DNA of 64,000 nucleotides from contig JAHISQ010000101.1 in NCBI GenBank assembly GCA_018818125.1, forward strand, positions 14,977 through 78,976, read 5' to 3'. The notes under the pieces were generated by a model. The model made no database searches. It saw only the letters and a list, made by a program, of their open reading frames with translations, and was not told the DNA's origin. Position numbers and translations under genes: made by a program. The DNA comes from Candidatus Rifleibacteriota bacterium. Its GTDB lineage: Bacteria; Muiribacteriota; Ozemobacteria; Ozemobacterales; Ozemobacteraceae. The stretch's first letter is position 1, and each line of letters opens with the position of its first letter. Shown piece by piece: positions 23,175 through 57,758 of this stretch.

Positions 23175-23723
23175 ATGATGCTGAAAAGAATATTTGTTTT
23201 TTTCATATTTGCTCTTTCGTTTTTTCCTGTTTCTGCTGAAAAAATCGATGTTAACGAACTCCTTGATCAGGCTGACATACTTCTAAAAAAAGCCTGGGAA
23301 GCAGATGATAATGCCCAATTTGACAAGAGCAAAAAGCTTTACGAACAATATCTCCAATTCCTTACGCAGGCTGCTGATGCCGGTTCTGCTAACACATGCT
23401 TCAAGTTAGCACGGCACTACAGTATAACCCATTCACCCGAAAGCATTAAATGGGCTAAAGAAGGCGCTGAAAGGGGCGATCCAGAAGCAATGGAATTGCT
23501 CGGGCAAAAATATTTCGTAGGCAAAGAGATAGAACAAAATTGGCTTAAAACTCATTATTATTACATGCTTGCCATAAAAATTGGTGGCGAAAAACATATG
23601 AGAGGAACTGTAGAACGTGTCAGACGGCTTGAAAGGCGTTTAACCGCCGAGCAGATAGCAAACACAAAAAAACTGCTGGAAGAGTTTAAACCCAAAACAA
23701 TCTCGTTCGGCCAAAAGGAATAA
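23175..23723 (+). CDS. Sel1-like repeat protein, secreted
   Basis: Signal peptide MMLKRIFVFFIFALSFFPVSA; Sel1-type repeats (AADAGSANTCFKLARHY..., KWAKEGAERGDPEAMELLGQKYFVGKEIEQNWLKT). Confidence 0.6.
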   Translation: MMLKRIFVFFIFALSFFPVSAEKIDVNELLDQADILLKKAWEADDNAQFDKSKKLYEQYLQFLTQAADAGSANTCFKLARHYSITHSPESIKWAKEGAERGDPEAMELLGQKYFVGKEIEQNWLKTHYYYMLAIKIGGEKHMRGTVERVRRLERRLTAEQIANTKKLLEEFKPKTISFGQKE

Positions 23724-23726
23724 ACA

Positions 23727-26321
23727 ATGAGATCAATGAATAAATCAGTATGTTTAAAATTATTCGTATGCTGCTGCATCTTCTTTTCAGATGATCTTCA
23801 TGCGCAGACAAATTCACACACTAATGAAATAAAACCACAACACAATTTGTCGAAAGATAGATATTTATCAAATGATAAGAAGGCAAGCGGAAGTGAAAAC
23901 ACCAGCCTCCAAAAACACCACCAACACTTAAATATATCGCAAGAATTAGCTCAAACAACAGCAATGAATGAGGCAATCGCAAATCATGCCCCTGCATCGG
24001 ATATAGTAAGAATGATAGAAAACGGTGCCAATGTTTTTCATAGAGAGCGAATGTCTAACAAAACTCCTCTTCATGAAGCAGCAAAGCATGAAGACTATCT
24101 TGATGTCGTAAAAGCTTTGATAAAACGAGGTGCTGATGTTAACGCAAAAACGCAATCAGGATACAGCCCTTTGTATTATGCCGACAGCAGCAATATAGAA
24201 ATAGCAAGAACCCTTATCGAAAACGGTGCCAATGTAAATGAAACAACAGCGCGCAACGGGGAAACTCCGCTGATGCACCTCGCAAGTGTTTCTCCGAATC
24301 CAGATATTGTAAATCTTCTGATAGAAAACAAGGCTGATATAAATGCCGTTGCAAAGAACGGTAGCCCTGTCCTGGCATTTGTTTCAGACTATCGCAGTTC
24401 TTCGCCAAAATCAATTGACAGCAGAAACCCTGAAAATATAAAAAGACTGCTAAAATTTGGATGCAATCCAGATTCTGCCAACACAAAAGATGGAACAACT
24501 GCATTAATGTATGCCATCAACAGTGAAAATAAGGAGATAATATCTATTCTTCTAGATGCAGGAGCAGACAGAGTTATTGCCGACAAAGATGGCAACATAC
24601 CTTTAAGCTATGGATTGTTGTGCGCAAACAGTCTGGAAATAACCAGACTGCTGCTGCAAAAAGAGTGCGACATCAATGCCCAAAACAACGAAGGAAATAC
24701 CGCATTACTGCTTGCCGCATATACGACAGACAATCCCGAACTGATAGATTTGCTCATAGAACATGGTGCTGACATCAGTATTACTGATAAATGGAAGAAT
24801 TCCGCCCTGATCTGTGCGGCCGAGAAAAATACGAACCCACTGATCATTGCCGCACTTATTGACAAGGGACTTCCAATTGACCGGGGAAATGGCATAGATA
24901 CAACTCCTCTGATGAACGCTGTCAGTTACAATCCGAACTCTGAAATTGCCGAACTCTTACTGGAAAAAGGTGCCAGCGTTAATAAAAAAACAAAATATGG
25001 AAAAACAGCATTGATGAATGCCGCTCAATTCAGTCACCCGGAAAGAGTCAGTATGCTGCTTAAAAGGGGTGCCTTGATTAATGCGAAAGATAATCAGGGA
25101 AACAATGCACTCATATGTGCGGTAAAATTTAGCAAATCAATTCAGCCCCCTAAACCAGATAGAACAAAACCCGGATTGCTGGATGATGACAAGACCAGCA
25201 GTAATTCACAGAAAAGAAGCCCCAGTTACAAAATCATCCAGATTCTACTAGATAATGGCGCTGATATTAAAGTCACAGACAGTAAAAAGAACAATCTTCT
25301 TTGCGCTCTGTTTGAATTCCCCTCCCCGACCGACCCTGATGTATTGAAACTTCTCATAGAAAAAGGCGTTGATGTAAATGAAGCGAACAATTTAGGCCGC
25401 ACCCCACTGTATAAAGCTCTTGTATGGTCAGCAGACGTAAGCATCATTTCGATACTTCTGGCAAATGGCGCGAAAATTGATCACAAGGACGAATTTGACG
25501 AGTCAATAACTGATGTTGCCTTAAAAGCCAAAAATGCGAAAGAACTAATCCCTTTGCTTCAGAAACATGGTAAACCTGAAGCAAACAGTGAAGTGATGAT
25601 TATTGAGGCAGCCAGAAATTGTAAAAACCCGGAAATATTACAATCTATTGTAAGTAGCGGAGCAGATATAAAGGCTTTCAACCAGCATGGCGAAAACCTT
25701 GTTACCGTAGCCGCAAAAAATAACAATCCCGAAGTTCTAAAATACGTCCTGAGTCTTGCCCTGGATGCTAATATGGCAAACAAAGATGGTTTTACTCCGC
25801 TGATGATATCTGCAGACAACTGCAACCTGATTAATGCAGCAATATTATTAGAATATGGCGCCAAAATAAGTTCACCAGGACAACAAGTGGACTACTCCGA
25901 AATATCTCTTGCGGCCAATTCCGGCAAAAAAACTGAGAATAGGATCGCCATGCTTGATTTCCTTTTCCAAAATGGAGCAAAGCTTTCAACAGCAAAGGAT
26001 GCATACGGCAAACTACTTTCTGAACTGGCAGAACGCGACGAAAGTGCCGAAGTCATTTTATCTCTTGTTAAACACGGAGCAGATATAAATTCGCGTAATC
26101 CCCAAGAGAAAACCCCGTTAATATCTGCAGCAATAAACACCAGATACGGAAAAACAGTTATTGCCGAGTTGCTTGATGCCGGTGCAGATGCAACACTTAT
26201 GGACGACAATTGCAGCCGCGCTTATGACTATGCAGAAATATTCCAGGGAAAGCAAATCAGCGATCCTGTGTTTTTACGACTTGAAAAAGAATGCGCCAAG
26301 CTCGACAACAACTTGAAGTAA
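23727..26321 (+). CDS. ankyrin-repeat protein, 864 aa, secreted
   Basis: Signal peptide; about 20 ANK repeats with the canonical TPLH.AA..G..dvvklLl..GAdvNa pattern (e.g. TPLHEAAKHEDYLDVVKALIKRGADVNAKTQSGYSPLYYA). Confidence 0.85.
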   Translation: MRSMNKSVCLKLFVCCCIFFSDDLHAQTNSHTNEIKPQHNLSKDRYLSNDKKASGSENTSLQKHHQHLNISQELAQTTAMNEAIANHAPASDIVRMIENGANVFHRERMSNKTPLHEAAKHEDYLDVVKALIKRGADVNAKTQSGYSPLYYADSSNIEIARTLIENGANVNETTARNGETPLMHLASVSPNPDIVNLLIENKADINAVAKNGSPVLAFVSDYRSSSPKSIDSRNPENIKRLLKFGCNPDSANTKDGTTALMYAINSENKEIISILLDAGADRVIADKDGNIPLSYGLLCANSLEITRLLLQKECDINAQNNEGNTALLLAAYTTDNPELIDLLIEHGADISITDKWKNSALICAAEKNTNPLIIAALIDKGLPIDRGNGIDTTPLMNAVSYNPNSEIAELLLEKGASVNKKTKYGKTALMNAAQFSHPERVSMLLKRGALINAKDNQGNNALICAVKFSKSIQPPKPDRTKPGLLDDDKTSSNSQKRSPSYKIIQILLDNGADIKVTDSKKNNLLCALFEFPSPTDPDVLKLLIEKGVDVNEANNLGRTPLYKALVWSADVSIISILLANGAKIDHKDEFDESITDVALKAKNAKELIPLLQKHGKPEANSEVMIIEAARNCKNPEILQSIVSSGADIKAFNQHGENLVTVAAKNNNPEVLKYVLSLALDANMANKDGFTPLMISADNCNLINAAILLEYGAKISSPGQQVDYSEISLAANSGKKTENRIAMLDFLFQNGAKLSTAKDAYGKLLSELAERDESAEVILSLVKHGADINSRNPQEKTPLISAAINTRYGKTVIAELLDAGADATLMDDNCSRAYDYAEIFQGKQISDPVFLRLEKECAKLDNNLK

Positions 26322-28232: not shown

Positions 28233-28898
28233 TCAGAATTCACCGGTTACTCCGATAATTGGGCCGCTGAATTCCTGTTTTTTGGCACGGCTTTCCTCAT
28301 CAGAATTATTCAGTGAAGTCAGTAAACCCGGTTTAGTCTGTTCTGGTGCTGTGTTATCAGTTCTGCTCATCTGCGAATCGCGGCCGCCTTTTTTAAAGCC
28401 AAAACCAAGCATCCAGCTTGGCTGAGATCTTTCAGTCGGCCGGTTCAGGCGATATCCGATCAGATATCGTTCCGACTGGCTGTCACGCTTGTCGTCATCA
28501 GCGTTACTACGAGGCAAATCGCTGCTACTATAACGTGGTTGCTGCATTCTTTCGCGCTTCTCGGCGCTGAAAATCGGTATAATCCATCGTTTGTCGCTGC
28601 TTCCCTCTTTAAGATCAAAGCGCTCAAGAATATTTTCGCCCGTTTCCCGCAGAGATTGAAACAAAGGATTTTTCTCGAGCAGCTGGAGCGGCCCGCGCTT
28701 TTCTGGTGGGTCATTCTGGTCATTCAGCAGCAAAGAATTCTGATAGCTTTCTCTGGACTGAAATTCGAATTGCGTGTCATTTACCCAGGCCCCCAGAGAC
28801 GCATTTTTGTTGTCAACGGCAGTAAACCCGGAACTGCACACACCCAAACACAAAGCAAAAACTCCGCATATTTTCTGAACAGTCCTGGTCGGGCGCAT
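28233..28898 (-). CDS. hypothetical secreted protein
   Basis: Signal peptide MRPTRTVQKICGVFALCLGVCSSGFTA; 221 aa, charged low-complexity regions. Confidence 0.4.
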   Translation of the reverse strand: MRPTRTVQKICGVFALCLGVCSSGFTAVDNKNASLGAWVNDTQFEFQSRESYQNSLLLNDQNDPPEKRGPLQLLEKNPLFQSLRETGENILERFDLKEGSSDKRWIIPIFSAEKRERMQQPRYSSSDLPRSNADDDKRDSQSERYLIGYRLNRPTERSQPSWMLGFGFKKGGRDSQMSRTDNTAPEQTKPGLLTSLNNSDEESRAKKQEFSGPIIGVTGEF

Positions 28899-29017: not shown

Positions 29018-29422
29018 TCAGCGAAAATCTGCGTATTTTACACCACTGATGCTGAGTTCTTCGCTGGCAGAATGAAACAGTGGCCGGCCCTGGGCGTCCT
29101 GGGCAAGAACCCAGTCAAACTGGCCGGTAAATGGGTCTGAATAAGCCTGACGCAGGAAGCGATTGCCGACGCTGTCGCGCAGCAGTTCTTCGGTTCCGGT
29201 CGGGGGGCGGTCGTGGCAGCGCTCGAACTTGTTAACGGCGCGCTTAAATTCGCCGAGAATAAAGCGCAACTGGTCTTCTTTGCCACGGCGGACTTCGAGA
29301 TCTACACGCGGAATCACAACGGCAAGACTTATTGCCAGAAGCACCACCGAGATGCTTATTATCAGGAGAGAGACGCCACGGCGGGCATTAGCAGGTGCTG
29401 TGATCGCCTCAAAACTCGGCAT
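29018..29422 (-). CDS. pseudopilin-like protein with degenerate prepilin leader
   Basis: N-terminus RRGVSLLIISISVVLLAISLAVVIP resembles a class III signal but lacks the +5 Glu; C-terminal DPFTGQFDW...SGVKYADF parallels the neighbouring GspG-like protein; 14-nt overlap with it. Confidence 0.5.
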   Translation of the reverse strand: MPSFEAITAPANARRGVSLLIISISVVLLAISLAVVIPRVDLEVRRGKEDQLRFILGEFKRAVNKFERCHDRPPTGTEELLRDSVGNRFLRQAYSDPFTGQFDWVLAQDAQGRPLFHSASEELSISGVKYADFR

Positions 29423-29792
29423 AGCTTATTCCATCAAGACTGAGGCCGTCAGCGCCAGATTTAACGTCATAAACATCATTACCCTGCTGCGAAGGCACGG
29501 TGACCCAGGTATCATTCTTTTCGGTAAAAGGATCGGGCGGAATGCTGCGAATATAGCCTTGTTTTACCAGTGTTTCGAGGGTTTCTGGCCACTGTTCGTG
29601 ATCTTTAAAGTAATCGTTGAGAGTATTGCGAAAAACGTAGAGGTCTTTTTTCAGCGCAGTCTCTTTGGTGCGTTTAATGGTGCGGCCATACATCGGCACA
29701 ACGGTGACGTAAAGCAATCCGATAATGGCAACGACAACACTCATTTCGACAAGTGTAAAGGCCACTCGGTTCTTTTGCAAATTCACGAACAT
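29409..29792 (-). CDS. GspG/PulG-like major pseudopilin (prepilin-type N-terminal cleavage/methylation domain)
   Basis: AFTLVEMSVVVAIIGLL prepilin motif (G-F-T-L-V-E); 127 aa; C-terminal DPF/W/YDV..SGADG pattern as in GspG. Confidence 0.75.
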   Translation of the reverse strand: MFVNLQKNRVAFTLVEMSVVVAIIGLLYVTVVPMYGRTIKRTKETALKKDLYVFRNTLNDYFKDHEQWPETLETLVKQGYIRSIPPDPFTEKNDTWVTVPSQQGNDVYDVKSGADGLSLDGISYAEF

Positions 29793-29795
29793 AGT

Positions 29796-30836
29796 TTACC
29801 CCCTGGTACCCCGGTAAAAATCCAGAAAGTTTTCGCCGGCAACGCGATCAAGTTCATTCTTAAGATACAGCTTTTGAACCGATTGTGCAAACAACTGACT
29901 GCCCTGACCGGCACTCGCGATATTGGGTTCGATCTGTGTGATTTTGCCCTTCTGAATGATGCTCGTTACGGTACTGTTCATGACCAGAGTCTCGTGAACC
30001 GGTATAATGCGCTTGCCAACCTGATCGGCAATCAGAGCCTGCGAAACAACGCCCTGCAGATTGTCGGCAAGAACCTGGCAGACGAATTCACGATCGCTCT
30101 CGGGGAAAGAAAAAATGAATTTTTCGAGCGTGTTCACTATGCCAAGCGTCTGCATGCTCAATATTACAAAATGGCCGCCGGCAACGTATTCAATGATGCT
30201 CTTGAATGGTATCTCGCGCTTAAGATCGCCAATTACCAACACATCAACATCCATACGTTTCGCGAAGTTGATACCCTGATCAATTACAAAAATATCTTTC
30301 CGAAACTGGCGCTGCGAAATGCGACAGCGCTTCGGCTCGAAATTGAATTCAATCGGATCTTCGATTATCAGAATATGCCTGGAATGGCGCTGGTTCATGC
30401 GCTCAACAATGCTCGCCAGAGAAGTCGAAATACCTGAGCGGGCCGGACCGGCAATGATAAAAACACCTTTTTTGGCGTCGAGAAATGGCACCAGCGTATC
30501 AGGGAACTTGATTTCTTCGAGCGTAGGAATCTTGCTGTCGATGATTTTTATCAGCGCAACCGGCTTCTGCTGTGAATGAAACAGGGTAAGACGATAGTTA
30601 CATGGCGGCTTACCAAAAAAATTAGCTTCAAAGGAGCTGTTTTTATTGAATTTTTCAATATCTTCCGGGCTCAGCAAGGCTGCTAACAGGTCGTTCATGT
30701 CGGCTTCCTGGACTGGTGGGGAGTCCATGTGGCGGAGAAATTTGTTTTTGCGAATAAGCGGACGAGCTGAGATCTTGAGGTGAAGCTCAGTACCACCTGA
30801 TTTCTTTACGTTTTCGATGAGTTTTTTGATATCCAT
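29796..30836 (-). CDS. PilT-family ATPase paralog with degenerate catalytic motifs (pseudo-ATPase)
   Basis: PilT N-domain (ELHLKISARPLIR) and core architecture, but Walker A is GPARSGISTSL (catalytic Lys replaced by Ile), Walker B/Asp box is DVLVIGDLKR (Glu to Asp) and His box TLHT is replaced by SMQT. Confidence 0.75.
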   Translation of the reverse strand: MDIKKLIENVKKSGGTELHLKISARPLIRKNKFLRHMDSPPVQEADMNDLLAALLSPEDIEKFNKNSSFEANFFGKPPCNYRLTLFHSQQKPVALIKIIDSKIPTLEEIKFPDTLVPFLDAKKGVFIIAGPARSGISTSLASIVERMNQRHSRHILIIEDPIEFNFEPKRCRISQRQFRKDIFVIDQGINFAKRMDVDVLVIGDLKREIPFKSIIEYVAGGHFVILSMQTLGIVNTLEKFIFSFPESDREFVCQVLADNLQGVVSQALIADQVGKRIIPVHETLVMNSTVTSIIQKGKITQIEPNIASAGQGSQLFAQSVQKLYLKNELDRVAGENFLDFYRGTRG

Positions 30837-30848
30837 GCGCTGCCCCTC

Positions 30849-31901
30849 TTACGCTTTGCCCGAAATGCGCGACTTGTCGATCGCGTATTCAGCGGCAGTT
30901 TTCTGAGTTATAACCCGTTTGCGCGCCAGTGCGGCGAGCTGCGAATCAAAAGTTTTCATTCCGACAGTATCACCCTGACCCTGCAAGGCCCGGAACATGC
31001 TCATATTGTTGTTGCGCACCAGCGCCTTCATCTGCGGGGTGTTGACCAATATATCAAAGATGGCAACACGACCACTTTGGTCATCTCTTGGCACCAGACG
31101 CTGGCTTACGATCAACTTGAGCTGCGAAGCAATACGCGCCCGCAAAGCTTCGCGATCGGCATGTTCACGACAGCTGATAAGGCGGTCAAGAACCTGCTGA
31201 CAATCGCCACCTTCGGTTGAGGCGATAACCATACAACCTGATTCACAGAGGGTCAACGCCTGATCCATGGCATCGGAGTAGTTGATCGAATCAGACACTA
31301 CCACATCAGGATCAACGCGATAGGCTTCGCACAGCCCATTATAAAAATTTGAAATATCGACTGGAATACTGCGCTGAATAAAGGCGCTCTTGTCATCTTT
31401 AAAAACGTATTCAACCGGGTTTTCGATCGTGAAGATACTCTTTTCAAAATGACGGTTGATAAAGTTGAGCATGGCCGCGATGGTCGAGGTTTTACCCTCC
31501 CCAGATGGGCTGCCAACCATAATCAGGCCGGATGGCTGAGAAATAACCTTGCGCACGCCTTCGCCAAAACCAAGATCTTCGAGCTCAAAAAATTTCTCGC
31601 TGATAAAACGAATTGCGATGGCAAATTTGCTCTTGTCGAGAAACACCGAAAACCTGAGGCGACCAACGGTAGGAACATCTTCAGCATAAGTCACCTGACG
31701 CTGCCGGCCAAGAATTTCGCGAGCCTTTGGCGTGCTGGTTTCGATAATTATCTTTTTGATCTGATCTTCGTTGAGAATTATGCCTTCGAGTTTTTCGATG
31801 GCTCCATTCAATCGGTAAAATATCGGCTGATCAGGAAAAAGATGCAGGTCAGAAGCACCTTTAACCTTAACCATCTGACAAATCTTCATTAATTCCGTCA
31901 T
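30849..31901 (-). CDS. PilT-family ATPase paralog with degenerate Walker B and His box
   Basis: Walker A GSPSGEGKTST (Lys kept, one-residue insertion); Asp box DVVVSDSINYSD instead of DIILVGEMRD; His box region ASTEGGD instead of GTLHT. Confidence 0.75.
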   Translation of the reverse strand: MTELMKICQMVKVKGASDLHLFPDQPIFYRLNGAIEKLEGIILNEDQIKKIIIETSTPKAREILGRQRQVTYAEDVPTVGRLRFSVFLDKSKFAIAIRFISEKFFELEDLGFGEGVRKVISQPSGLIMVGSPSGEGKTSTIAAMLNFINRHFEKSIFTIENPVEYVFKDDKSAFIQRSIPVDISNFYNGLCEAYRVDPDVVVSDSINYSDAMDQALTLCESGCMVIASTEGGDCQQVLDRLISCREHADREALRARIASQLKLIVSQRLVPRDDQSGRVAIFDILVNTPQMKALVRNNNMSMFRALQGQGDTVGMKTFDSQLAALARKRVITQKTAAEYAIDKSRISGKA

Positions 31902-31978: not shown

Positions 31979-34126
31979 TCAAATGCGCTGCAGAAGTTCG
32001 ACTACATTTTTAAGAACCTGACTGTCGGGTGGAAGCGTTTTGCGCAGCCCCTCAAGAATAACTCTGGCCTTTTCACTCTCTTCAATAGCGTAGTAGCAAA
32101 GAGCCAGATGATACGAAGAAGACAGGTCGCGCGGGTTAGCCTGCAGTCCCCGACTAAGCGCCGATATTGCCTGTGCATATTTCTTCTGATGAAAATAGGC
32201 CAGGCCAAGTGCACCATAAATGCGAATGAGATTTTTCTTGTCGTCGGCATTTACGTATTGCTGCACCCGTTCATAGCATGAAGCGAGCTGTTCCCATTCT
32301 TTTTTGCGAAAATAGATCTGCCCCAGCAGCACTGCCGCGTTTATATGTGACGGTTCATCGTCAACTATGCCAGCAAGCATGGCGGAGGCCTTTTTCATTT
32401 CGCCGAGACTATAAAAAGTGTGCCCAAGATAGTAACGTGCCTCAATATTATCTGGCTGAGCCGAAACCAGCTTCTCAAGCAGTTCCCGGGCTTTGGCAAA
32501 ATCGCCGCCGGTGAACAGCTCGATGCTCTGAGACAAAAGATCAGACTCAGGTATTTCGGCACTCGTGGTACCAAGAGTAGTAAGACCTTCCATGTCGCGG
32601 CCGACTTCTTCCGCAAGCCCTTTGAGCAGAATATTAGAAAATTTCTCGGGCAGCTGCACATAAGAGCCAATGTTTCCGGCAATTCGCACCCAGCTTAACA
32701 ACTCATTCTCACGCTTCTTTTCATTTAATGCCGTGGCGACCTCATCAAAAACGGCAAGTTCGCCGTTAAGCAAAAGCGCCTTATAGTATTCAGAAAAGAC
32801 TTCGGCGCGAACCGTGCCAAGAAATTTCTTGATCTTAAGCAGTTCTTCGCGGGCACCAAGATGACCAAGAGCCGCAATCAGCCAGGGCATCTCTTCTTCT
32901 GGTTCTTTTTTGATGCGGTCAAAAAGGTTCGCAATCGCCTCTTTGATGTTGCGCGAAACTACGTAATCGAGAGCACAGCTTATCACCGGTGCACTGTCTT
33001 CCTTTTTAAGGAGATCGAGAATATCCTGATCGGGAAAATCTTCAATCCTGATTGCGCACTCAACCGCCTCTTTGCGCACCCACTGGCTCTCATCACTGAG
33101 CAAAGGCCTTATTTCACGAACTCCCACTCCGGCTTCTAATGACAAAGCCGCTTTTAATGCCATTTTTCGGACACCGAAATTCTCGTCTCTGAGCAGCTGA
33201 TGCACATATTCTTCACGTTTGTCGTTAGCGATACGGGCAAGAACATAGGCTGCCGAGCGCCGGGTTGAAGCATCAGAGCTCTTCATCATGGTTTGAAGCT
33301 CTTCGGTAACCGCCTCTGAATCCGCAGTTGCCAGGGCAATACAAACATTGGCGCGAACACGGTTATTCGAATGACCGTAGAATTTTTTTAGCTTTCGTTT
33401 CATTTCGAGCGCTGGAATCTTGAGATACGAAATAGCTTCAACAGAATTCGCCTGTATTCTCGGATCGAAAGAGTCCAAACCGCTCTCGAAAGTCTTGAGC
33501 AGGCGAGCTTCGGCAAAGGTTGCCAGCGATGAAACTATGATCGCCTTGAGTCGCGAATCTCTTGCAATCTCGAACTGGCCAACCAAGGCAGGGACAGCTT
33601 CGGGATCTTTAAGTTTTGACAGAATTTCAAGAACATTTATCACGATCCATTCGTCCGGATCGTTAAGCAGGCCGCACAAACTCTGCACAACATCACGACC
33701 ACCCATTTTATACAAAGCTCGTGCCGAATAATATCGCACCATGCGGTCTTCGTCGTGCAGTAGCTCCATCAGGGGGCGAGCCGCCTGAGGGTCGCCGATT
33801 TCGCCCAGCACCCTTACTATCTCTTCTTTATGTAGTGCATCAGGGTTCTGTAAGCGCTCGATCAGCCGGGCAACCGGCGTGCTGCTTTTAAAATAGCCAA
33901 GAGCTGTAATTGGCTCGATGTAATCGGCATACTCGTCAAATGCCTTGGTAAGAGTAGGCAATGACTGGTTGTCACCAATTTTACCAAGGCTGAGCAGAGT
34001 CTCAAATCTTAACTCGTCAGAGATATCGTTCTGCAATAATTCCTCAAGACGCGTGGTGGCCGGGCGCAAAAGTCTTCTCGCCGCCTTAACATATCTGAAG
34101 GATTCAATCTGATGCAGGTCACTCAT
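31979..34126 (-). CDS. HEAT-repeat (PBS-lyase type) plus TPR-repeat protein
   Basis: Many about 30-aa HEAT-like units (VR..A..ALG.IGD..A...L) across the first 480 aa; C-terminal TPR units (ARYYLGHTFYSLGEMKKA..., LGLAYFHQKKYAQAISAL...); 4-nt overlap with the downstream PilT gene. Confidence 0.7.
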   Translation of the reverse strand: MSDLHQIESFRYVKAARRLLRPATTRLEELLQNDISDELRFETLLSLGKIGDNQSLPTLTKAFDEYADYIEPITALGYFKSSTPVARLIERLQNPDALHKEEIVRVLGEIGDPQAARPLMELLHDEDRMVRYYSARALYKMGGRDVVQSLCGLLNDPDEWIVINVLEILSKLKDPEAVPALVGQFEIARDSRLKAIIVSSLATFAEARLLKTFESGLDSFDPRIQANSVEAISYLKIPALEMKRKLKKFYGHSNNRVRANVCIALATADSEAVTEELQTMMKSSDASTRRSAAYVLARIANDKREEYVHQLLRDENFGVRKMALKAALSLEAGVGVREIRPLLSDESQWVRKEAVECAIRIEDFPDQDILDLLKKEDSAPVISCALDYVVSRNIKEAIANLFDRIKKEPEEEMPWLIAALGHLGAREELLKIKKFLGTVRAEVFSEYYKALLLNGELAVFDEVATALNEKKRENELLSWVRIAGNIGSYVQLPEKFSNILLKGLAEEVGRDMEGLTTLGTTSAEIPESDLLSQSIELFTGGDFAKARELLEKLVSAQPDNIEARYYLGHTFYSLGEMKKASAMLAGIVDDEPSHINAAVLLGQIYFRKKEWEQLASCYERVQQYVNADDKKNLIRIYGALGLAYFHQKKYAQAISALSRGLQANPRDLSSSYHLALCYYAIEESEKARVILEGLRKTLPPDSQVLKNVVELLQRI

Positions 34127-35160
34127 TCAATAATCTCCTTCATGATAGTTGCTACCAGCTTGCCGTCTACTCGTTCATCTTTAAGAATTTCGTTAAGAGA
34201 ATCCTTTAGCGTTTTGCACCCATCTTTGCGCGCCAGCATCAATGCTGATTTAAGCTGATTTGTCTTCTTTTCTCTGATCAGATTGCGCATGGCCGAGTTC
34301 ATAATCATCAGTTCATAGGCCATTACACGCTCACGCTTATGCAGGCTGGGTAACAGAATCTGGGAAATAATGCCAATCAGCGACATCGAGAGCTGGGTGC
34401 GTATCTCTTCGTGCCGGTGTCCCGGAAATACATTGATGATACGATCTATGGTCTGCACAGCACCGACCGTGTGCAGCGTCGAAAATACCAGATGCCCGGT
34501 CTCAGCTGCGGTAAGAACCATTTCCATTGTATCGGTATCGCGCATTTCACCAACCAGAATCACATCGGGATCTTCTCTTAAAGCACTCATCAGAGCACCA
34601 TGATAATTGCCGGCGGTAACTCCGATTTCACGTTGCGTAAAAATAGATTTGCGCTCACGGTAGACAAACTCAATCGGGTCTTCGATCGTAATTACATGTC
34701 GGTGCGAGGTGCGATTTATTTCGTTAACGATAGCGGCCAGCGTATGGGTCTTGCCTGAGTTGGCAGGCCCGGTAACCAGGAACAGCCCGCGCGGTCGCGC
34801 CGCGATTTCCTTGAGCATCATTGGCAGGTTCAGCGAGTCGATAGACGGGACATGCATCGGAATAAAACGAAATGCACCCGATAAACACCCACGCTGTCTG
34901 AAAATACAGACGCGAACCCGCCAGCGATTTTTGTAGCGAATCATAAAGTTAGTTTCGTGCATGGCACGTAAGTCACTTTGCGCCTTAACATCCATTAAGG
35001 GAAGAAAAAGGTTTGGCATTTCCTGATACGCCAGCGGTTCATGCGGCAAAGGGATCAGACGTCCACCAACTCTTATCAGCGGCGGCGCGCCAGTCTTTAA
35101 ATGCAGGTCAGAAGCCTGACGCTCAATAGCGGTTTCGAAAAAATCGTGTATTCTCAGCAT
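34123..35160 (-). CDS. PilT-family twitching-motility (retraction-type) ATPase, canonical motifs
   Basis: Walker A GPANSGKTHT, Asp box DVILVGEMRD, His box TLHT, PilT N-domain DLHLKTGAPPLIRV. Confidence 0.85.
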   Translation of the reverse strand: MLRIHDFFETAIERQASDLHLKTGAPPLIRVGGRLIPLPHEPLAYQEMPNLFLPLMDVKAQSDLRAMHETNFMIRYKNRWRVRVCIFRQRGCLSGAFRFIPMHVPSIDSLNLPMMLKEIAARPRGLFLVTGPANSGKTHTLAAIVNEINRTSHRHVITIEDPIEFVYRERKSIFTQREIGVTAGNYHGALMSALREDPDVILVGEMRDTDTMEMVLTAAETGHLVFSTLHTVGAVQTIDRIINVFPGHRHEEIRTQLSMSLIGIISQILLPSLHKRERVMAYELMIMNSAMRNLIREKKTNQLKSALMLARKDGCKTLKDSLNEILKDERVDGKLVATIMKEIIE

Positions 35161-35180: not shown

Positions 35181-36290
35181 TTACATCGGTGGTTCGTTCA
35201 GAATTTTTCTCAGTGCAGCTGGATTTGGAGCTGCCGCCAAGGCGTCTTCTTTTTTAACCACCCGGTCTTTTACCAGCTGCGCCAGTGACATTTCCATGGT
35301 CATCATACCGTATTCGGCGCCGGTCTCAAGATATGACGGCAACATGTGTATCTTGCCATCAGCAATCAGGGAACGCACAGCCGATGAGTTTATAAGCACT
35401 TCAAATGCTGCAACACGCCCACCGTCAGGTTTGGGGAGCAGTGTTTGCGAAACAACTCCGCGCAAAACCATCGAAAGTTGAAGTAAAATCTGATGATGCC
35501 GCGATTCCGGAAAAACGTTAACAATACGTTCGGCCGTGCTCACTGCCGAACTGGTGTGTAGTGTAGCAATTACCAGTTTGCCAGTTTCGGCGGCGTTAAG
35601 CGTCAGTGAAATAGTTTCAGGTTCCCGCATTTCGCCGACAACTATGATATCTGGATCCTGACGCAATACGGTCAAAAGCCCCTCATAGAAACTCAAACAG
35701 TCAACACCAACCTGGCGCTGATTAAAAAAACTCATGTTATCTTCAAACTGAAATTCAATAGGATCTTCGAGCGTAACCACGTGGCGTCGAGCCATTCGGT
35801 TAACGTAGCTCAGATAACTCGCCATGGTCGAAGTTTTGCCGGCACCAGTCGGGCCGGTAATCAGAATCAGACCGTTGGGTTGCTCGATCAGACGGCGGGC
35901 GGCCAGCGGCAAACCAATTTCGTCAAACTCCATCACACGATAGGGTATGACGCGAAAAACCGCGCCAAAACCATTGATATCATTGTAGAGGTTTACCCTG
36001 AAACGACAAACACCTTCAAGGGTGTAGGCAAAGTCGATTTCGTGGCTTTTTCTGAACAGGTCTTCCTGTTCAGGGGCCAGCAATACTTCGATAATACGAT
36101 CAAAGTCTTTTTTGCTGAACTTGAAACCATCGACGTGCCGAATATGCCCATCTACACGAATCGCAGGCGCCTTACCTACTTTCAGATGCAGGTCAGATGC
36201 GCCCTCGTCAAAAGTGAGTTTAAGTAATCGGTGTAAGCTTCTTTCGTCTGCCATGAACGGTATTATACTCATCAGGCTCCTTCTTAACAA
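35181..36290 (-). CDS. PilT/PilU-family ATPase, canonical motifs
   Basis: Walker A GPTGAGKTST, Asp box DIIVVGEMRE, His box TLHTSSA, N-domain DLHLKVGKAPAIRV. Confidence 0.85.
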   Translation of the reverse strand: MLRRSLMSIIPFMADERSLHRLLKLTFDEGASDLHLKVGKAPAIRVDGHIRHVDGFKFSKKDFDRIIEVLLAPEQEDLFRKSHEIDFAYTLEGVCRFRVNLYNDINGFGAVFRVIPYRVMEFDEIGLPLAARRLIEQPNGLILITGPTGAGKTSTMASYLSYVNRMARRHVVTLEDPIEFQFEDNMSFFNQRQVGVDCLSFYEGLLTVLRQDPDIIVVGEMREPETISLTLNAAETGKLVIATLHTSSAVSTAERIVNVFPESRHHQILLQLSMVLRGVVSQTLLPKPDGGRVAAFEVLINSSAVRSLIADGKIHMLPSYLETGAEYGMMTMEMSLAQLVKDRVVKKEDALAAAPNPAALRKILNEPPM

Positions 36291-36369: not shown

Positions 36370-38835
36370 ATGCCAGCATACGAAGCAGTTATTAGTAATA
36401 TCAAACCGCTGATTGCACGTCTTTTACACTTTTTTCTTACAGGTGAATACGAACAGCGACGCGAATCAGCAATTGCACTGTCAAAATTCAAGGGCGAAAA
36501 AGCAACAGATTTTCTGCTCGAAACCTACGAAAGCGACAACATCCAGGACTTCATGGCCCTGGCGCTCGGTAACATCGACAACCTCAAGGCAGTAAACCTG
36601 CTGATACATGCCCTCAACGATTCCCAGCAGGAAGTCAGATTTCATGCCGCCCAGGCGCTGGGCATGCTCGAAAACCCTGAAGCTCTCGACATATTGATGG
36701 ATGCTCTGCACGTTTATGCTGAGGCCAGCGTTGGTGTTACTCCCGAACCACCTCTCGAGGAAGCGGCGAGTCAGATCTTCTTCGAAGAAGACGCAATCAT
36801 CAGCGCGATTCTTGCTGTCGGCAAAATTAAGAACTGGCGGGCAATTTCGCTGCTCAAAAAGCTTCTAGCCCAGGAAAAAAGCGCACGTATCCGCGCCTCG
36901 ATCATCATGTCGCTAGGATTGATGGCTTCAGACAAGCTGATGCCGGTTTTTCAGGCGGCACTGCGTGATGAGGATCCCAGAGTCAGAGCGAACGCAATTG
37001 AAGCTATTGAAACGATCAAATCAGGATCAATCGTCGGAATTATCCAACCCTATCTGGAAGACCCCAGTAACCGCGTGCGCGCCAACGTAGCCAAGGCAAT
37101 CTGGAAATACGGCGATTTCGATGTATCAGACACTCTGAGGCAAATGCTGGAGCACCCGGATAAGTGGTATCGCGCTTCAGCAGCCTACGCCATCGGCGAG
37201 ATTAAAGACGCCCGCTTCGTTCGCGAGCTTGCAAAAGCTCTCAAAGACGAAGACCCTGACGTCAGACGCAACGCAACCAACGCCATGCGCAAGGTTGAAG
37301 CAAAAGACGCCCTGCAGCACGTAAAACCGCTGCTCGACGACCCGAATTTTGATGTACGCGTCGAAGCGGTATTGGCCGTCAGCAGATGCGCCCCGGAAAT
37401 CGCGAATGAGCTGTTGAAAGAAAAACTTCAGCACGAAGAAAACTTTATCGTTCAGGCAACACTGATTTCCTGCATCGGTCAGTCTGGCAAACCAGCAATG
37501 ATCCCTGTTATTCGCAGTTACCTCGATAGCGAAGATCCTCGCGTCGTCTCAAACACAATCGACGCCCTCGTAAAGCTCTCGCCTAAGTCTGACCCTGCAC
37601 TGATATCAATGTTAAAAACCCTGTTGAAGCATGAGGATAACCGTGTAAAAAGCACAGCGATCCGGACCCTCTGGGTTTGGGGAGAATACGAAGTTCTCGA
37701 CAAACTGCGGGAGCTGTTCAGCAGCCCCGACAAGCGTCTAATCCAGTCGGCGACATTTGTTCTCGGCGAAATCGGCAAAGAAATCAGCAAAGTAGAGGTT
37801 CTCTCCGCAAGGGTTAATCTGATCGTAACCGAACTCATTGACAATCCTGAGACAATAAACGATCTGATCAGGTCTGAATCTGCTTCTGCTGAATCCACTG
37901 CGCCAGCACAGACAGCTGAAGAGTCAACGCCTCAGGCAGAACCTGAGTTAACCGCTGACAAAGAAACATCAGGCGAACCAGAACGAGAACTCCCCCCCCC
38001 AATGGAACCGGAGTTCGAAATACTGCAGCCTTCTGCTGATCCAGCCAGCAAAGAGCCGGAGCAGCCAGCTGCAGCGCTGCCGCAGCCAATCAGCGCTCAG
38101 ATTCTTCCAGACAACAGTTTCAATGAAGAAATCGAGATAGCCAATCGCTTTGTAACGGCACGCAATTACCCCGCTGCCGAAAAGGTTTTTGCACAGATTC
38201 TGCACAAGTCGCCTTCGCATCTCAAAGCGATCCTGGGCATAGCCAACCTTTGTTTCCTGCAGAAGAAAAATGCCGAAGCGGTTAAATACTATCAGTCCGC
38301 GCTTAAAATCAATCCAAATCTGGTCAAGGCACATTTCAATCTTGGCACAATTTTCTATTATGCACGCAAATATGACGATGCGGTCAAGCATCTGGCCAAG
38401 GCTCTCAAGCTGTATCCCAAAATTCTCGGCGCCTATCTGATTCTCGGGCAGATTTATCAAATTGCCGGCAAATTCAGCGAAAGCGTGCGACTGATGACTC
38501 ATGCCGCGGCGCTGTCTCCGCGCAATCCAGTTATTTACCAAAAGCTGGCAACCCTGCATATTCAGCTTGGCAAATACGACGATGCAATTGAAGTGCTGCT
38601 CAAAGCAGTCGACATTTCTCCGGCCGACGTTGAGTCTAACCTGCTGCTTGCCTATTGCTTCAATTTGACCGGGCAGTCCCAAAAAGCGTTCAGCGCTATG
38701 GATCTCACATTAAGGGCCTGCGCCCAGTCTCCGCAACAGGATCTGGCGCTGCGCCAGATGCTCAAGGCGTATCTATACCTTAGCTCTATCCAGAAAGAAC
38801 CCACACCTGCACAGGAGAACAATAATGCCTCTTGA
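36370..38835 (+). CDS. HEAT-repeat plus TPR-repeat protein (paralogous architecture to 31979-34126)
   Basis: N-terminal PBS-lyase HEAT-like repeats (DPRVRANAIEAI, NRVRANVAKAI, DPDVRRNATNAM), acidic Pro/Glu-rich linker, C-terminal TPR units; divergent from the PilT operon. Confidence 0.7.
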   Translation: MPAYEAVISNIKPLIARLLHFFLTGEYEQRRESAIALSKFKGEKATDFLLETYESDNIQDFMALALGNIDNLKAVNLLIHALNDSQQEVRFHAAQALGMLENPEALDILMDALHVYAEASVGVTPEPPLEEAASQIFFEEDAIISAILAVGKIKNWRAISLLKKLLAQEKSARIRASIIMSLGLMASDKLMPVFQAALRDEDPRVRANAIEAIETIKSGSIVGIIQPYLEDPSNRVRANVAKAIWKYGDFDVSDTLRQMLEHPDKWYRASAAYAIGEIKDARFVRELAKALKDEDPDVRRNATNAMRKVEAKDALQHVKPLLDDPNFDVRVEAVLAVSRCAPEIANELLKEKLQHEENFIVQATLISCIGQSGKPAMIPVIRSYLDSEDPRVVSNTIDALVKLSPKSDPALISMLKTLLKHEDNRVKSTAIRTLWVWGEYEVLDKLRELFSSPDKRLIQSATFVLGEIGKEISKVEVLSARVNLIVTELIDNPETINDLIRSESASAESTAPAQTAEESTPQAEPELTADKETSGEPERELPPPMEPEFEILQPSADPASKEPEQPAAALPQPISAQILPDNSFNEEIEIANRFVTARNYPAAEKVFAQILHKSPSHLKAILGIANLCFLQKKNAEAVKYYQSALKINPNLVKAHFNLGTIFYYARKYDDAVKHLAKALKLYPKILGAYLILGQIYQIAGKFSESVRLMTHAAALSPRNPVIYQKLATLHIQLGKYDDAIEVLLKAVDISPADVESNLLLAYCFNLTGQSQKAFSAMDLTLRACAQSPQQDLALRQMLKAYLYLSSIQKEPTPAQENNNAS

Positions 38836-39010
38836 AAAATCGCCACAACGCTGGAACTACAAAACTCTTGATCTTACCGGACTCAGAGGCGATGATTTTC
38901 TGGAAAGACTTGGTTATCTTCTTGACGAAGCGGGGCGTAACGGCTGGGATCTCGCCTATATGTGCGAAGACTACATGATCATGAAACAGCTTTATTTTGC
39001 CAAAGAGTGA
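38825..39010 (+). CDS. DUF4177-like small protein
   Basis: 61 aa; RWNYKTLDLTGLRGDDFLERLGYLLDEAGRNGWDL matches the DUF4177 pattern (W-E/N-Y-K-T...G...G..D...LE..LNE.G.EGWEL); 11-nt overlap with the upstream HEAT-TPR gene. Confidence 0.45.
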   Translation: MPLEKSPQRWNYKTLDLTGLRGDDFLERLGYLLDEAGRNGWDLAYMCEDYMIMKQLYFAKE

Positions 39011-54340: not shown

Positions 54341-55453
54341 TTATTTGACGGGCTTAACCAGTAGGCGCTCTACATCTGAGTCCGTTGCTTTCAATCCAAT
54401 TGACTCGTTTTTAGAATCGCTATTAATTGAGCTGACTTTATAAGTCCCAACCATACCGCCAACTGAAACAGTCAGCTCACTGTTGTTATATTTAACTTTT
54501 GCCGAGCCGGAAGGACCTGCCGAAAACACCTGCAAAAGCTCAAGATACTCTGTGCCGGCCAATGTTACGAGTTCAACATTGTTGATAACTGAACACTGAT
54601 CGCTCAACCAGATTTTGCCATCCTTTGGATGGCTACATGAGACATTTATCGAGACAAGAATTCTCTTGGTTGTAACTTCGTTTTTCTGACCACTCTGGGT
54701 AACAAAAACACCGCGCAACTCGTCGATGGCATATGAGTCGACTTCGATCCCATTTACGTCATTTATTATTTCGCGCTCACGGCTTACCGGAATTGCGCGA
54801 TCAAATTCATTGGTCAGTCCGAAAGCTCTTCGATAAGGATCTGATTTAGTATTGTAAGTTTCGTTGCGTTCAACAAGGATTAAACTAGCAAGGCCACTGG
54901 TTGAATAATGACGTTCAGGTCGAAGCAACAGCTCAACCCAGGTTATATTGCCAGCTGTATAACCATCTTCAAAATCCTTTTCCGGCTCACAGATCGGAAA
55001 ATACATGATCGTCTGGTCCTTAAAGCTTGGTCTGATAATACCAGAACCAGTAATCACCGAGTGCATGTCAAAAGCGTCGCTGGAATTGAGTTCGAGATCG
55101 CGCAAACGCCCGCTGCCCTTTTTATCCGCTAAATTGCCAAAAGCATCTTCACCATCGTATGTGCGCTTTTCTTTAAATGAAATAACCTTCTCGTTTCTAG
55201 CAGCTCCAGAACCAGTTCTGATGATAGTAGAAGGGTAAGAAGTCTTTTTGAGCATGTCGGTTATTGCGCGCGTTCCATTACGCAACTGAGAAATCGCCTG
55301 CTGAATCCAGAAGCCCTTTTCGGTCTCGCGCCGAGAATAGCTCAAAACACTATTAGCGGCACCAAATAACAAACTGAGAAGAGTTACCGCCAGCATTGTT
55401 TCGACAAGCGTCACACCACGGGCATTGCGACTGATATGTGACGTTGCAATCAT
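54341..55453 (-). CDS. large pseudopilin/minor pilin-like protein (prepilin-type N-terminal domain)
   Basis: N-terminus ARGVTLVETMLAVTLLSLLFG fits the prepilin cleavage/methylation motif (G-x-T-L-V-E); 370 aa. Confidence 0.65.
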   Translation of the reverse strand: MIATSHISRNARGVTLVETMLAVTLLSLLFGAANSVLSYSRRETEKGFWIQQAISQLRNGTRAITDMLKKTSYPSTIIRTGSGAARNEKVISFKEKRTYDGEDAFGNLADKKGSGRLRDLELNSSDAFDMHSVITGSGIIRPSFKDQTIMYFPICEPEKDFEDGYTAGNITWVELLLRPERHYSTSGLASLILVERNETYNTKSDPYRRAFGLTNEFDRAIPVSREREIINDVNGIEVDSYAIDELRGVFVTQSGQKNEVTTKRILVSINVSCSHPKDGKIWLSDQCSVINNVELVTLAGTEYLELLQVFSAGPSGSAKVKYNNSELTVSVGGMVGTYKVSSINSDSKNESIGLKATDSDVERLLVKPVK

Positions 55454-55992
55454 TTGATGCCTCCGGTGAATCTTGAGACAATAATCTCCTCGACCAGTTC
55501 AGTTTCAAATTTTTTACTTGGGCCGCTGTCAACCTCTGATTTGACAACTAATTTATAGCCATCCTGTATCATTTTCATGCGGTTATGTGAGCCAGTCAGC
55601 CCAAGACTTTCAACATAGTATTTACCGCCGTATGGAAACATATTGTCTGGCGACTTGGCTTCGCTAAAGAGATCATAACTAGCCTGTTCGCTTTTGAATA
55701 CGCCCATGGCGGTCGGAACATGCCTCGACGAATCGATATCGTCAAGTGCGTTGCCAGAACCATTTTTATCGAAAAAATCGAATGTCTCTTTAGGTAAAAG
55801 TCGCAACTGCAGCTTGGCATGCTGCATACCGGAATGCGCCAGGTAGTAGGCCTGCATCTGATAGACGGTCTGTTTGTTCTGGAAAGCAAGGTTTGTATTT
55901 GAATGCGCCATGAAAAAGAATATGGTTGAGATCGAAAAAGCAAAAAACAGCACAACAACAACCGCAATTCCTGATTTTTTATGCATTTTCAA
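55450..55992 (-). CDS. PilX/GspK-like minor pseudopilin (N-terminal signal anchor)
   Basis: KKSGIAVVVVLFFAFSISTIFFFMA resembles the PilX N-terminal domain; 4-nt overlaps with both neighbours. Confidence 0.45.
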   Translation of the reverse strand: MKMHKKSGIAVVVVLFFAFSISTIFFFMAHSNTNLAFQNKQTVYQMQAYYLAHSGMQHAKLQLRLLPKETFDFFDKNGSGNALDDIDSSRHVPTAMGVFKSEQASYDLFSEAKSPDNMFPYGGKYYVESLGLTGSHNRMKMIQDGYKLVVKSEVDSGPSKKFETELVEEIIVSRFTGGIK

Positions 55993-56621
55993 CCTTCCAG
56001 ATCAGACTTGAAACCGACCAGAAAAACACTTTTTGCGTGCGGATCAGAGTTCGGATCAAGATTTTTGATGTTCGACCATTTAACCTGCACTATAATCTTT
56101 TTGATAAGATTAAATTTATCGTAGTCATCCTTGGGCACCAGGTCACTGATTTGAAAATACTGCTTCAGCTTACCAGGCACCTCAATAGTAAACTGAATTG
56201 GCGCCGTGCTTGAATCCTGATCAAGATCTACAACCTTGACCCGGGCTCTGAACAGAAAGCCTTTTCGACACTGATACAAGCCATCACCCTGAAATACTTT
56301 TGGCTTGACCGTCTCACAGCCGGTGCCAAACATTCGTGGGACTGCTCTGCTGATAAAACTCTCAACCCCCACGACTGCTTTTCGATCTTCAAATATACAA
56401 GGATTGCCCTCGCCAATAGCACGCCATGGCATCTGAAACATAAGCGAATCCATAATAAACTTGGCACGAGAAATTGCAATAGTTTCGGTATAAAAGCGCT
56501 CGGTTTCTTTTACTGCGCCAGTCAGGAATTGAAAAACCGGCAACGCAACAAGGCCGAGGATTAGAAATGCTAAACAAACCTCGACAAACGTGATACCGCT
56601 TTTTTTTGCGTTGCTTCTCAT
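55989..56621 (-). CDS. pseudopilin (prepilin-type N-terminal cleavage/methylation domain)
   Basis: KKSGITFVEVCLAFLILGLVALPVF (G-I-T-F-V-E); 210 aa. Confidence 0.65.
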   Translation of the reverse strand: MRSNAKKSGITFVEVCLAFLILGLVALPVFQFLTGAVKETERFYTETIAISRAKFIMDSLMFQMPWRAIGEGNPCIFEDRKAVVGVESFISRAVPRMFGTGCETVKPKVFQGDGLYQCRKGFLFRARVKVVDLDQDSSTAPIQFTIEVPGKLKQYFQISDLVPKDDYDKFNLIKKIIVQVKWSNIKNLDPNSDPHAKSVFLVGFKSDLEG

Positions 56622-57738: not shown

Positions 57739-57758
57739 GTTTCTACAACTACCCCTGG

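Follow-up and report, generated by a model that had tools for sequence, protein, structure and literature searches.

The subject of this analysis is a cluster of PilT-family genes in a 64,000-nucleotide (nt) stretch of contig JAHISQ010000101.1 (positions 14,977 to 78,976 of the forward strand; assembly GCA_018818125.1) from Candidatus Rifleibacteriota bacterium, a stretch that we call the window. It harbors four PilT paralogs, here named PilT-A to PilT-D (A to D for short), together with two HEAT-TPR repeat genes and two pilin-like genes. All four characteristic motifs are present in A and B in a MAFFT alignment, whereas C and D have lost catalytic residues and, as judged from their sequences, are kept by purifying selection as fixed parts of a Riflebacteria-wide cluster. 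The cluster is composed of the following genes, given in window coordinates with lengths in amino acids (aa):

36370..38835, plus strand: divergently transcribed HEAT + TPR repeat protein of 821 aa (Pfam HEAT/TPR families), a conserved neighbour
35181..36290, minus strand: PilT-A, a canonical PilT/PilU-family ATPase (TIGR01420, 404.4 bits; gene callers place the start at 36272, giving 363 aa)
34123..35160, minus strand: PilT-B, a canonical PilT (TIGR01420, 390.4 bits) with all four motifs and an AMRNLIRE motif
31979..34126, minus strand: HEAT + TPR repeat protein of 715 aa, whose gene separates PilT-B from PilT-C (matches to Pfam HEAT_2 and TPR families)
30849..31901, minus strand: PilT-C, a degenerate PilT paralog of 350 aa (open reading frame (ORF), Pfam T2SSE, PilT matches in PDB)
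29796..30836, minus strand: PilT-D, a degenerate PilT paralog of 346 aa (ORF, Pfam T2SSE, PilT matches in PDB)
29409..29792, minus strand: G1, a GspG-like pseudopilin of 127 aa with the prepilin signal RVA|FTLVEM and an N_methyl motif
29018..29422, minus strand: G2, a pilin-like protein of 134 aa with a hydrophobic N-terminal segment but without Glu5

These genes are closely packed with intact reading frames, as had been stated earlier for C and D. A and B are separated by 20 nt, the stop of B overlaps the start of the 715-aa HEAT-TPR gene by 4 nt, and 77 nt lie between the latter and C; C and D are 12 nt apart, with a Shine-Dalgarno-like GAGGGG before the ATG of D, G1 starts 3 nt after the stop of D, and G1 and G2 overlap by 14 nt. 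The two HEAT-TPR proteins are paralogs of each other, with 24% identity across 689 aa. G1 matches TIGR01710 with an E-value of 8.6e-11, which is under the cut-off of that model, and G2 has no family match in the Pfam and NCBIfam scans. A scan for promoters and terminators returned counts not above those in shuffled sequence, and is therefore uninformative on operon boundaries. Among the PADLOC defence models, C, D and the pseudopilins have no match, and the HEAT proteins show similarity at the level of the repeats only.

Residue numbers below are those of Pseudomonas aeruginosa PilT, with K136 and E204 numbered likewise in two papers. The altered motifs of D and C, the coordinates of which were verified by translation, are listed below:

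30423..30449, minus strand: Walker A variant of D, GPARSGIST, with Lys changed to Ile and an Arg at P-loop position 4
30216..30245, minus strand: Walker B variant of D, DVLVIGDLKR, with the catalytic Glu changed to Asp and Arg to Lys
30147..30182, minus strand: His-box variant of D, AGGHFVILSMQT, with the second His changed to Gln and the His-box Thr to Gly
31485..31511, minus strand: Walker A of C, SPSGEGKTS, with Lys kept, the first Gly changed to Ser, and no insertion
31410..31424, minus strand: Asp box of C, ENPVE in place of EDPIE, with Asp changed to Asn
31278..31307, minus strand: Walker B region of C, DVVVSDSINY, with Gly-Glu changed to Asp-Ser
31209..31244, minus strand: His box of C, ESGCMVIASTEG, with both His lost, the second being Glu or Asp

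In terms of individual residues, D carries G133R, K136I, E204D, R206K and H229Q as well as an Arg at position 207, and retains G130, G203, the Asp box EDPIE including D160, Ser137, H222 and Arg82. C carries G130S, D160N, G203D, E204S, R206N, D207Y, H222C and H229E, and retains K136, T137, G133, Glu159, Glu163 and the N-domain arginines R82 and R97; its new acidic residue, Asp203, occupies the place of the classical Walker B aspartate. The original prediction had described C and D in its title as paralogs without the catalytic Lys, Glu and His, although its text had C keeping the Lys. The motif strings that it quoted are all present on the minus strand where it had placed them, and the loss of the Glu and the His holds for both genes, whereas the loss of the Lys holds for D but not for C. 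The insertion it had seen in the Walker A motif of C is absent, since VGSPSGEGKTST matches TGPTGSGKSTT column for column, and the altered Asp box of C is an addition to the losses it had described. The register of the motifs is not shifted, as the MAFFT alignment with A and B, the phmmer comparisons with PilT structures in PDB and an alignment of about 200 orthologs all agree. In the phmmer comparisons, D aligns to P. aeruginosa PilT (3jvu, E = 3.5e-44) and C to Thermus PilT (5fl3, E = 3e-51) without gaps in the motifs.

These substitutions are shared by orthologs, which we searched for in a space of about 5.8 billion proteins. The search returned 88 orthologs of D with identities of 45-92% (82 of them full-length) and 111 orthologs of C with identities of 44-100% (108 of them full-length), beyond which the identity drops abruptly to that of canonical PilTs, at most 29% for D and at most 37% for C. 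Their named sources are nearly all Candidatus Riflebacteria, Rifleibacterium or Ozemobacteraceae, and a few bins labelled Firmicutes look like cases of mis-binning. Some of the ortholog bins carry the labels Erysipelotrichia or Clostridiales, and the proteins themselves group with those of Riflebacteria. Among 1.84 billion cluster representatives scanned with the D-family profile, just one was a D protein of full length. The reading frames are intact in all full-length orthologs (about 190), the length is constant, and the shorter ones come from short contigs. In the ortholog alignment of D, Asp204 is found in 82 of 82 sequences, Ile136, Lys206 and the His-box Gly in 81 each, Arg133 in 78 and Gln229 in 74. 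Likewise, Ser130, Asn160, Asp203, Ser204, Tyr207 and the retained Lys136 each occur in 108 of the 108 C sequences, and Glu or Asp at position 229 in 103. Since the same substitutions are fixed across the orthologs of both families, the motif changes are not due to chance.

The conservation is particularly high around the former active site. When the orthologs were thinned to 85% identity, the mean entropy of 32 pocket positions was 0.48 bits in C, compared with 1.33 bits in the rest of the protein, and 0.51 versus 1.49 bits in D (P < 5e-5 by resampling in both cases), so that the pocket is about three times more conserved than the remainder in either family. Taken on their own, the substituted positions likewise exceed the average conservation (P = 0.010 for C and 0.002 for D). 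The view that the pocket is still in use gains support from this extra conservation, in which the substituted positions share. As both pockets are strongly conserved, their altered residues would seem to matter, be it for binding a ligand or for holding a conformation.

A test for purifying selection by the ratio of nonsynonymous to synonymous substitution rates (dN/dS, or omega), which had been suggested along with the original prediction, points in the same direction. For the window and L006, the closest pair among the loci described below, omega was 0.064, 0.071 and 0.075 for C and 0.048, 0.076 and 0.057 for D by NG86, YN00 and maximum likelihood, respectively. The same pair gave 0.02-0.035 for A and B (about 0.03 for B), about 0.05-0.08 for the HEAT-TPR proteins, and 0.16-0.21 for G2. 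At greater distances, C and D are about 53% identical where A and B are about 75% identical. Judging by these comparisons, C and D evolve about twice as fast as A and B at the protein level and yet are clearly constrained. In a neighbour-joining tree, they form two separate, long-branched, monophyletic groups, within which the sampled loci branch in a similar order; C and D are about 22% identical to each other, and each is about 28% identical to P. aeruginosa PilT. This topology fits two old and independent departures from canonical PilT, followed by vertical co-inheritance.

We compared ten loci across the diversity of the family, namely, the window (L001), L003 to L009, and two loci from species-representative genomes (L010 and L041). 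The latter two came from a search of genome contigs with the D alignment, in which matches to the generic EDPIEF pattern predominated and which gave just these two Riflebacteria loci. The order divergent HEAT-TPR gene, A, B, HEAT-TPR gene, C, D, G1 and G2 is found in nine of the ten loci, all of which therefore have the canonical PilT pair upstream of C and D. In the tenth, L004, only C, D and G1 are still neighbours, and C and D share one base. Since this locus retains just these three genes, the invariant core of the cluster is C-D-pseudopilin. A prepilin-type gene directly follows D in all ten loci, at a distance of 3-6 nt in eight of them and of 120 nt in L005. The degenerate paralogs are thus associated with pilus or pseudopilus genes on one side and canonical PilTs on the other. 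Past the divergent HEAT-TPR gene, most loci have recG and a conserved 61-codon ORF. This ORF (38825-39010, plus strand, between the HEAT-TPR gene and recG in the window) has no family match, and is found at the same position with 61-63 residues in seven loci (L001, L003, L005, L006, L007, L008 and L009). The region downstream of G2, including a 221-aa ORF at 28233-28898 in the window, differs among the otherwise syntenic loci. The cluster is chromosomal and vertically inherited.

The fold of the PilT family is predicted to be preserved in both proteins. AlphaFold2 monomer models built with the ortholog alignments reached a predicted local distance difference test score (pLDDT) of 91.0 and a predicted template modelling score (pTM) of 0.84 for D, and of 88.9 and 0.85, respectively, for C. 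The best Foldseek matches in PDB were Geobacter PilT4, Thermus PilT2, and P. aeruginosa PilT and PilU, with template modelling (TM) scores of 0.80-0.90 for D and up to 0.92 for C over 333-351 columns. As these matches span the full length, both proteins keep the N2D and CTD domains, in agreement with the earlier statement that the N-domain and the overall length are retained; the architecture is that of a two-domain PilT, with a length of about 345 aa and no N1 domain. Both pass the gathering threshold of Pfam T2SSE (PF00437, 24.9 bits) with 81.4 bits for C and 49.3 bits for D, and both fall short of the NCBIfam TIGR01420 cut-off of 319.1 bits (271.4 and 222.7 bits, respectively), which A and B pass. 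PF00437 is the sole domain detected in C and D, and no second-messenger-binding domain or motif was found in the Pfam and NCBIfam scans. As to the signatures of a working PilT, the Walker A pattern GxxxxGK[ST] is broken in D by the Ile and is essentially intact in C, where the Lys is kept and the first Gly is Ser, and neither protein has E204, H229 or an AIRNLIRE-type motif, of which PilT-B has one.

What these changes mean can be judged from the known mechanism of PilT, in which phosphate binding falls to the Walker A Lys, Glu204 serves as the catalytic base, and the His-box His touches the gamma-phosphate. McCallum et al. 2019 described residues of the Asp and His boxes as forming inter-chain contacts that set open versus closed interfaces of the ring (H230-T221, T221-T133 and R195-D161 in Geobacter metallireducens numbering, which is the P. 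aeruginosa number plus 1), and proposed a proton relay from the Glu through H230 and T221 to T133 (PMC6858323). All four proposed relay positions are replaced in both families: the Glu, the His-box His, the His-box Thr and the Walker A Thr are Asp, Gln, Gly and Ala in D, and Ser, Glu or Asp, Ser and Ser in C. Normal hydrolysis by C or D is therefore unlikely. The changes in the Asp and His boxes also alter the contacts of the open/closed ring switch, and in C the Asp of the R195-D161 contact is hit as well. Given that the Lys and Thr of the P-loop, the N-domain arginines and an Asp at the Walker B position are present, C probably binds Mg-nucleotide, with hydrolysis that would be very slow or nil. 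The pocket of D may be filled by its own side chains, or may depend on the new Arg and bind nucleotide weakly. In type I thymidylate kinases, an Arg at this point of the P-loop makes contact with the phosphates.

That a PilT ring can be of use without hydrolysing ATP is known from Vibrio cholerae, where PilT engineered to have a mutated Walker A or Walker B motif, or carrying a natural R206S change, still allows retraction as long as PilU is active (PMC6762196, PMC6821130). Because an ATPase-dead PilT permits PilU-driven retraction, the PilT ring has a non-hydrolytic role, and it is on account of this role beyond hydrolysis that we propose C and D as permanent non-catalytic partners of A and B. 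Under this proposal, C and D would assemble into rings, either alone, together, or with A and B, and would act as adaptors, scaffolds or gates that couple, position or gate A and B, the live motors, on a pseudopilus machine, the two HEAT-TPR proteins possibly organising the assembly. Such an arrangement would be a hard-wired version of the retraction by a dead PilT and PilU. In Myxococcus, type IV pili are known to be activated by SgmX, a TPR protein of the cytoplasm. Overall, we think it probable, with moderate confidence, that C and D are subunits derived from PilT that lack catalysis of their own and serve the active motors A and B. The roles named in the original prediction, i.e. a structural subunit, a non-hydrolysing nucleotide binder or a second-messenger receptor, may likewise apply, with nothing in the data that points to a second messenger in particular.

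Several observations weigh against this explanation. Genes for PilB, PilC, PilD or a secretin are found neither in the cluster nor in the rest of the 64-kb window, and no fusion or covariation evidence was found that ties C to D, or either of them specifically to A and B. The synonymous divergence already reaches about 0.7-1.0 between the two closest loci and is saturated or undefined in the remoter pairs, for which reason the omega argument leans mostly on that one pair and on conservation at the protein level. Furthermore, the replacements in D are chemically conservative (Glu to Asp, His to Gln, Arg to Lys, and Lys to Ile paired with Gly to Arg), which makes residual activity of D conceivable, and in C the gained Asp203 and Glu/Asp229 might in principle set up catalysis in a new way.

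The last two points lead to the alternative that C, D or both still work as ATPases by means of a rewired active site, where Arg133 would stand in for Lys136 and Asp204 for Glu204 in D, and Asp203 and Glu/Asp229 would take over catalysis in C. The near-invariance of the altered pocket residues is what chemistry would demand, the replacements in D preserve charge or hydrogen-bonding character, and the loop G-x-A-R-S-G-[IL]-S-T recurs in an unrelated PilT-like protein, P0281. However, every proposed element of the relay has changed simultaneously in both families, substitutions of the Walker A Lys or the Walker B Glu abolish PilT function in vivo when PilU is missing, and both proteins evolve about twice as fast as A and B, and hence we regard a rewired ATPase as unlikely.

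We consider it equally unlikely that C, D or both are primarily ligand sensors, whose pockets would bind ATP, ADP or a second messenger and thereby switch A and B allosterically, although this possibility overlaps with the preferred explanation and is a variant of it. Sensing would agree with the higher conservation of the pocket relative to the remaining protein, new residues included, and with the retention of the P-loop Lys and Thr and both N-domain arginines in C. However, apart from PF00437 there is no domain or motif to receive a second messenger, and the sensing of cyclic di-GMP known in this superfamily takes place via an additional N-terminal domain of an extension ATPase (PMC11656802), which C and D lack. 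Moreover, no feature of the two proteins separates sensing from a purely structural role.

A still less probable alternative, to which we give little credence, is that C and D act outside pilus biology and work with the HEAT-TPR proteins in a different process of the cytoplasm, their link to the pseudopilins being no more than positional. The missing PilB, PilC and PilQ genes nearby, the recG gene that adjoins the cluster in most loci, and the lack in C and D of the AIRNLIRE-type motif that B has kept would all suit this idea, but it hardly accounts for a prepilin-type gene right after D in all ten loci, even where A, B and the HEAT-TPR genes are not adjacent, or for both canonical PilTs in the same operon. 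Finally, we rejected, as having next to no probability, the readings that C and D are decaying pseudogenes or that their motif loss is an alignment artefact, since about 190 ORFs are intact and of constant length, omega is 0.05-0.08 rather than near 1, the former functional sites are fixed rather than variable, synteny is conserved, the PilT folds are confidently predicted, and the alignments to PDB structures are gap-free in the motifs.

Among the forms that non-catalytic partners of A and B could take, one that we put forward tentatively, and regard as possible rather than probable, is a dedicated C/D ring, either a C3D3 heterohexamer or stacked homohexamers, that would attach to the platform of the pseudopilus and, through the HEAT-TPR scaffolds, recruit or gate A and B. 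If true, pseudo-ATPase subunits would thereby be described for the first time in the PilT/VirB11 secretion-ATPase superfamily. The usual view of motors of the PilT family is that of homohexamers with ATP turnover in every subunit, and one structural paper describes the His-box histidine as conserved in all family members. PilT paralogs that are under selection without catalytic residues would show that this family, too, has spawned pseudo-enzymes, as F1 and many AAA+ machines have, and would provide a natural system for finding out what a PilT ring adds beyond hydrolysis, be it docking, coupling or conformational templating. Although the organism is uncultured, C and D are small, have confidently predicted folds, and can be made from synthetic genes. 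Their public names are inconsistent: the orthologs P0001, P0077, P0103, P0130 and P0150 are variously called PilT, 'Flp pilus assembly complex ATPase component TadA', 'ATPase, T2SS/T4P/T4SS family' or hypothetical. As annotations name C and D as motors, counts of motor genes overstate catalytic capacity.

Elsewhere in the window, a second cluster of prepilin-like ORFs is located at 54341-56621 on the minus strand, with products of 370, 180 and 210 aa and the N-termini RG|VTLVET, SG|IAVVVV and SG|ITFVEV. Upstream of it, at 56725-59114 on the same strand, are genes for two signal-peptide proteins (337 and 451 aa) without a family match. The plus-strand region 23175-26321 encodes an ankyrin-repeat protein of 864 aa that starts with a hydrophobic leader; before it comes a protein of 182 aa whose N-terminus is signal-like. 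The segment 10001-20000, with genes for a VTC-domain protein, a DUF4956 protein, a histidine kinase/response regulator pair and a radical SAM protein, has a G+C content of 0.38-0.41, compared with 0.45-0.50 elsewhere in the window, and may be acquired DNA.

PilT modules without the Lys, Glu or His recur in other lineages, both in fusions and in single degenerate PilT-like proteins, such as P0247 and P0246. Among the best 150 matches to the D profile, about 25 other domains lack one of these residues, including halves of tandem PilT-PilT fusions (e.g. in a protein from a Verrucomicrobiota metagenome-assembled genome), a Vulcanimicrobiota protein and P0281. The tandem fusions, which are found among P0223-P0240, are metagenomic proteins of 700-1000 aa. 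In P0231, P0232, P0238, P0239 (the Verrucomicrobiota protein) and P0240, one or both halves are without catalytic residues, and the remaining half is canonical in P0231 and P0240. We considered these fusions as a possible Rosetta-stone link between C and D and rejected them, since their high scores are the sum of two ordinary domains and no half is clearly C-like or D-like, which makes them a precedent in a general sense only. Scored with hidden Markov models of the two families, the N-terminal half of P0232 does slightly better with D (134 versus 124 bits); this half, P0281 and P0365 are the only three of the fusion halves and other degenerate PilT-like proteins that score best, if marginally, with D, and none scores best with C.

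The C/D operon is not shared by the degenerate PilT-like proteins that we examined, P0246, P0222 and P0281/P0372 being encoded by lone genes in unrelated contexts. P0281/P0372 (L094:318-1547) is a 409-aa protein with 29% identity to D and a P-loop of GAARSGLST, comparable to GPARSGIST in D, and it also lacks the catalytic Glu and His. The C-terminus of the product of its upstream gene, TYHPAYLLRNP, looks by eye like that of a uracil-DNA glycosylase. This protein is either a distant relative of D or a case of convergence. The closest relatives of C outside Riflebacteria, P0215 and P0217-P0222, are 35-37% identical to it, and have the Asp-box Asp changed to Asn and the His-box His to Pro or Ser, with the Walker A Lys and the catalytic Glu kept. 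One such relative is encoded by a solitary gene (L092:9001-10071) a few kb from a minor-pilin cluster.

Compared with PilT and PilU proper (TIGR01420; 3jvu, 6ojx, 5fl3 and 9n32), C and D are alike in length and in the N2D + CTD fold (TM 0.80-0.92), show clear homology (E = 1e-44 to 1e-51), and are encoded beside canonical PilTs and pilin-like genes. They differ in scoring under the TIGR01420 cut-off and in lacking the catalytic Glu, the His-box His and the AIRNLIRE-type motif, whereas the Walker A Lys is gone from D only and the Asp-box Asp from C only. In Myxococcus with five PilTs and Geobacter with four, the multi-PilT organisms for which explicit statements were found, all four motifs are present in every paralog. 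We found no paper on naturally motif-less PilT paralogs, or on PilT in Riflebacteria, in the searchable literature, which excludes subscription-only articles.

The closest functional precedent is the dead PilT of V. cholerae, i.e. the K136 and E204 mutants and the natural R206S variant of strain MO10 (PMC6762196, PMC6821130), where the altered residues are among those changed in C and D, and where a non-hydrolysing ring still functions as the partner of a second, active PilT-family ATPase. However, the V. cholerae cases are engineered mutants or one recent allele of the primary motor, whereas the Riflebacteria have two separate, anciently fixed paralog families beside two intact motors. Nucleotide-binding partners of a catalytic ring that do not turn over nucleotide are also represented by the F1 alpha subunits and by FlaH of the archaellum, which works with FlaI, a member of the same secretion-ATPase superfamily as PilT. 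These partners, however, belong to different protein families, FlaH being RecA/KaiC-like and, unlike C and D, not a PilT paralog. We conclude that C and D are functional genes and make up a phylum-wide, previously undescribed and, as predicted from their sequences, non-catalytic variant of the PilT family within a conserved cluster of eight genes.

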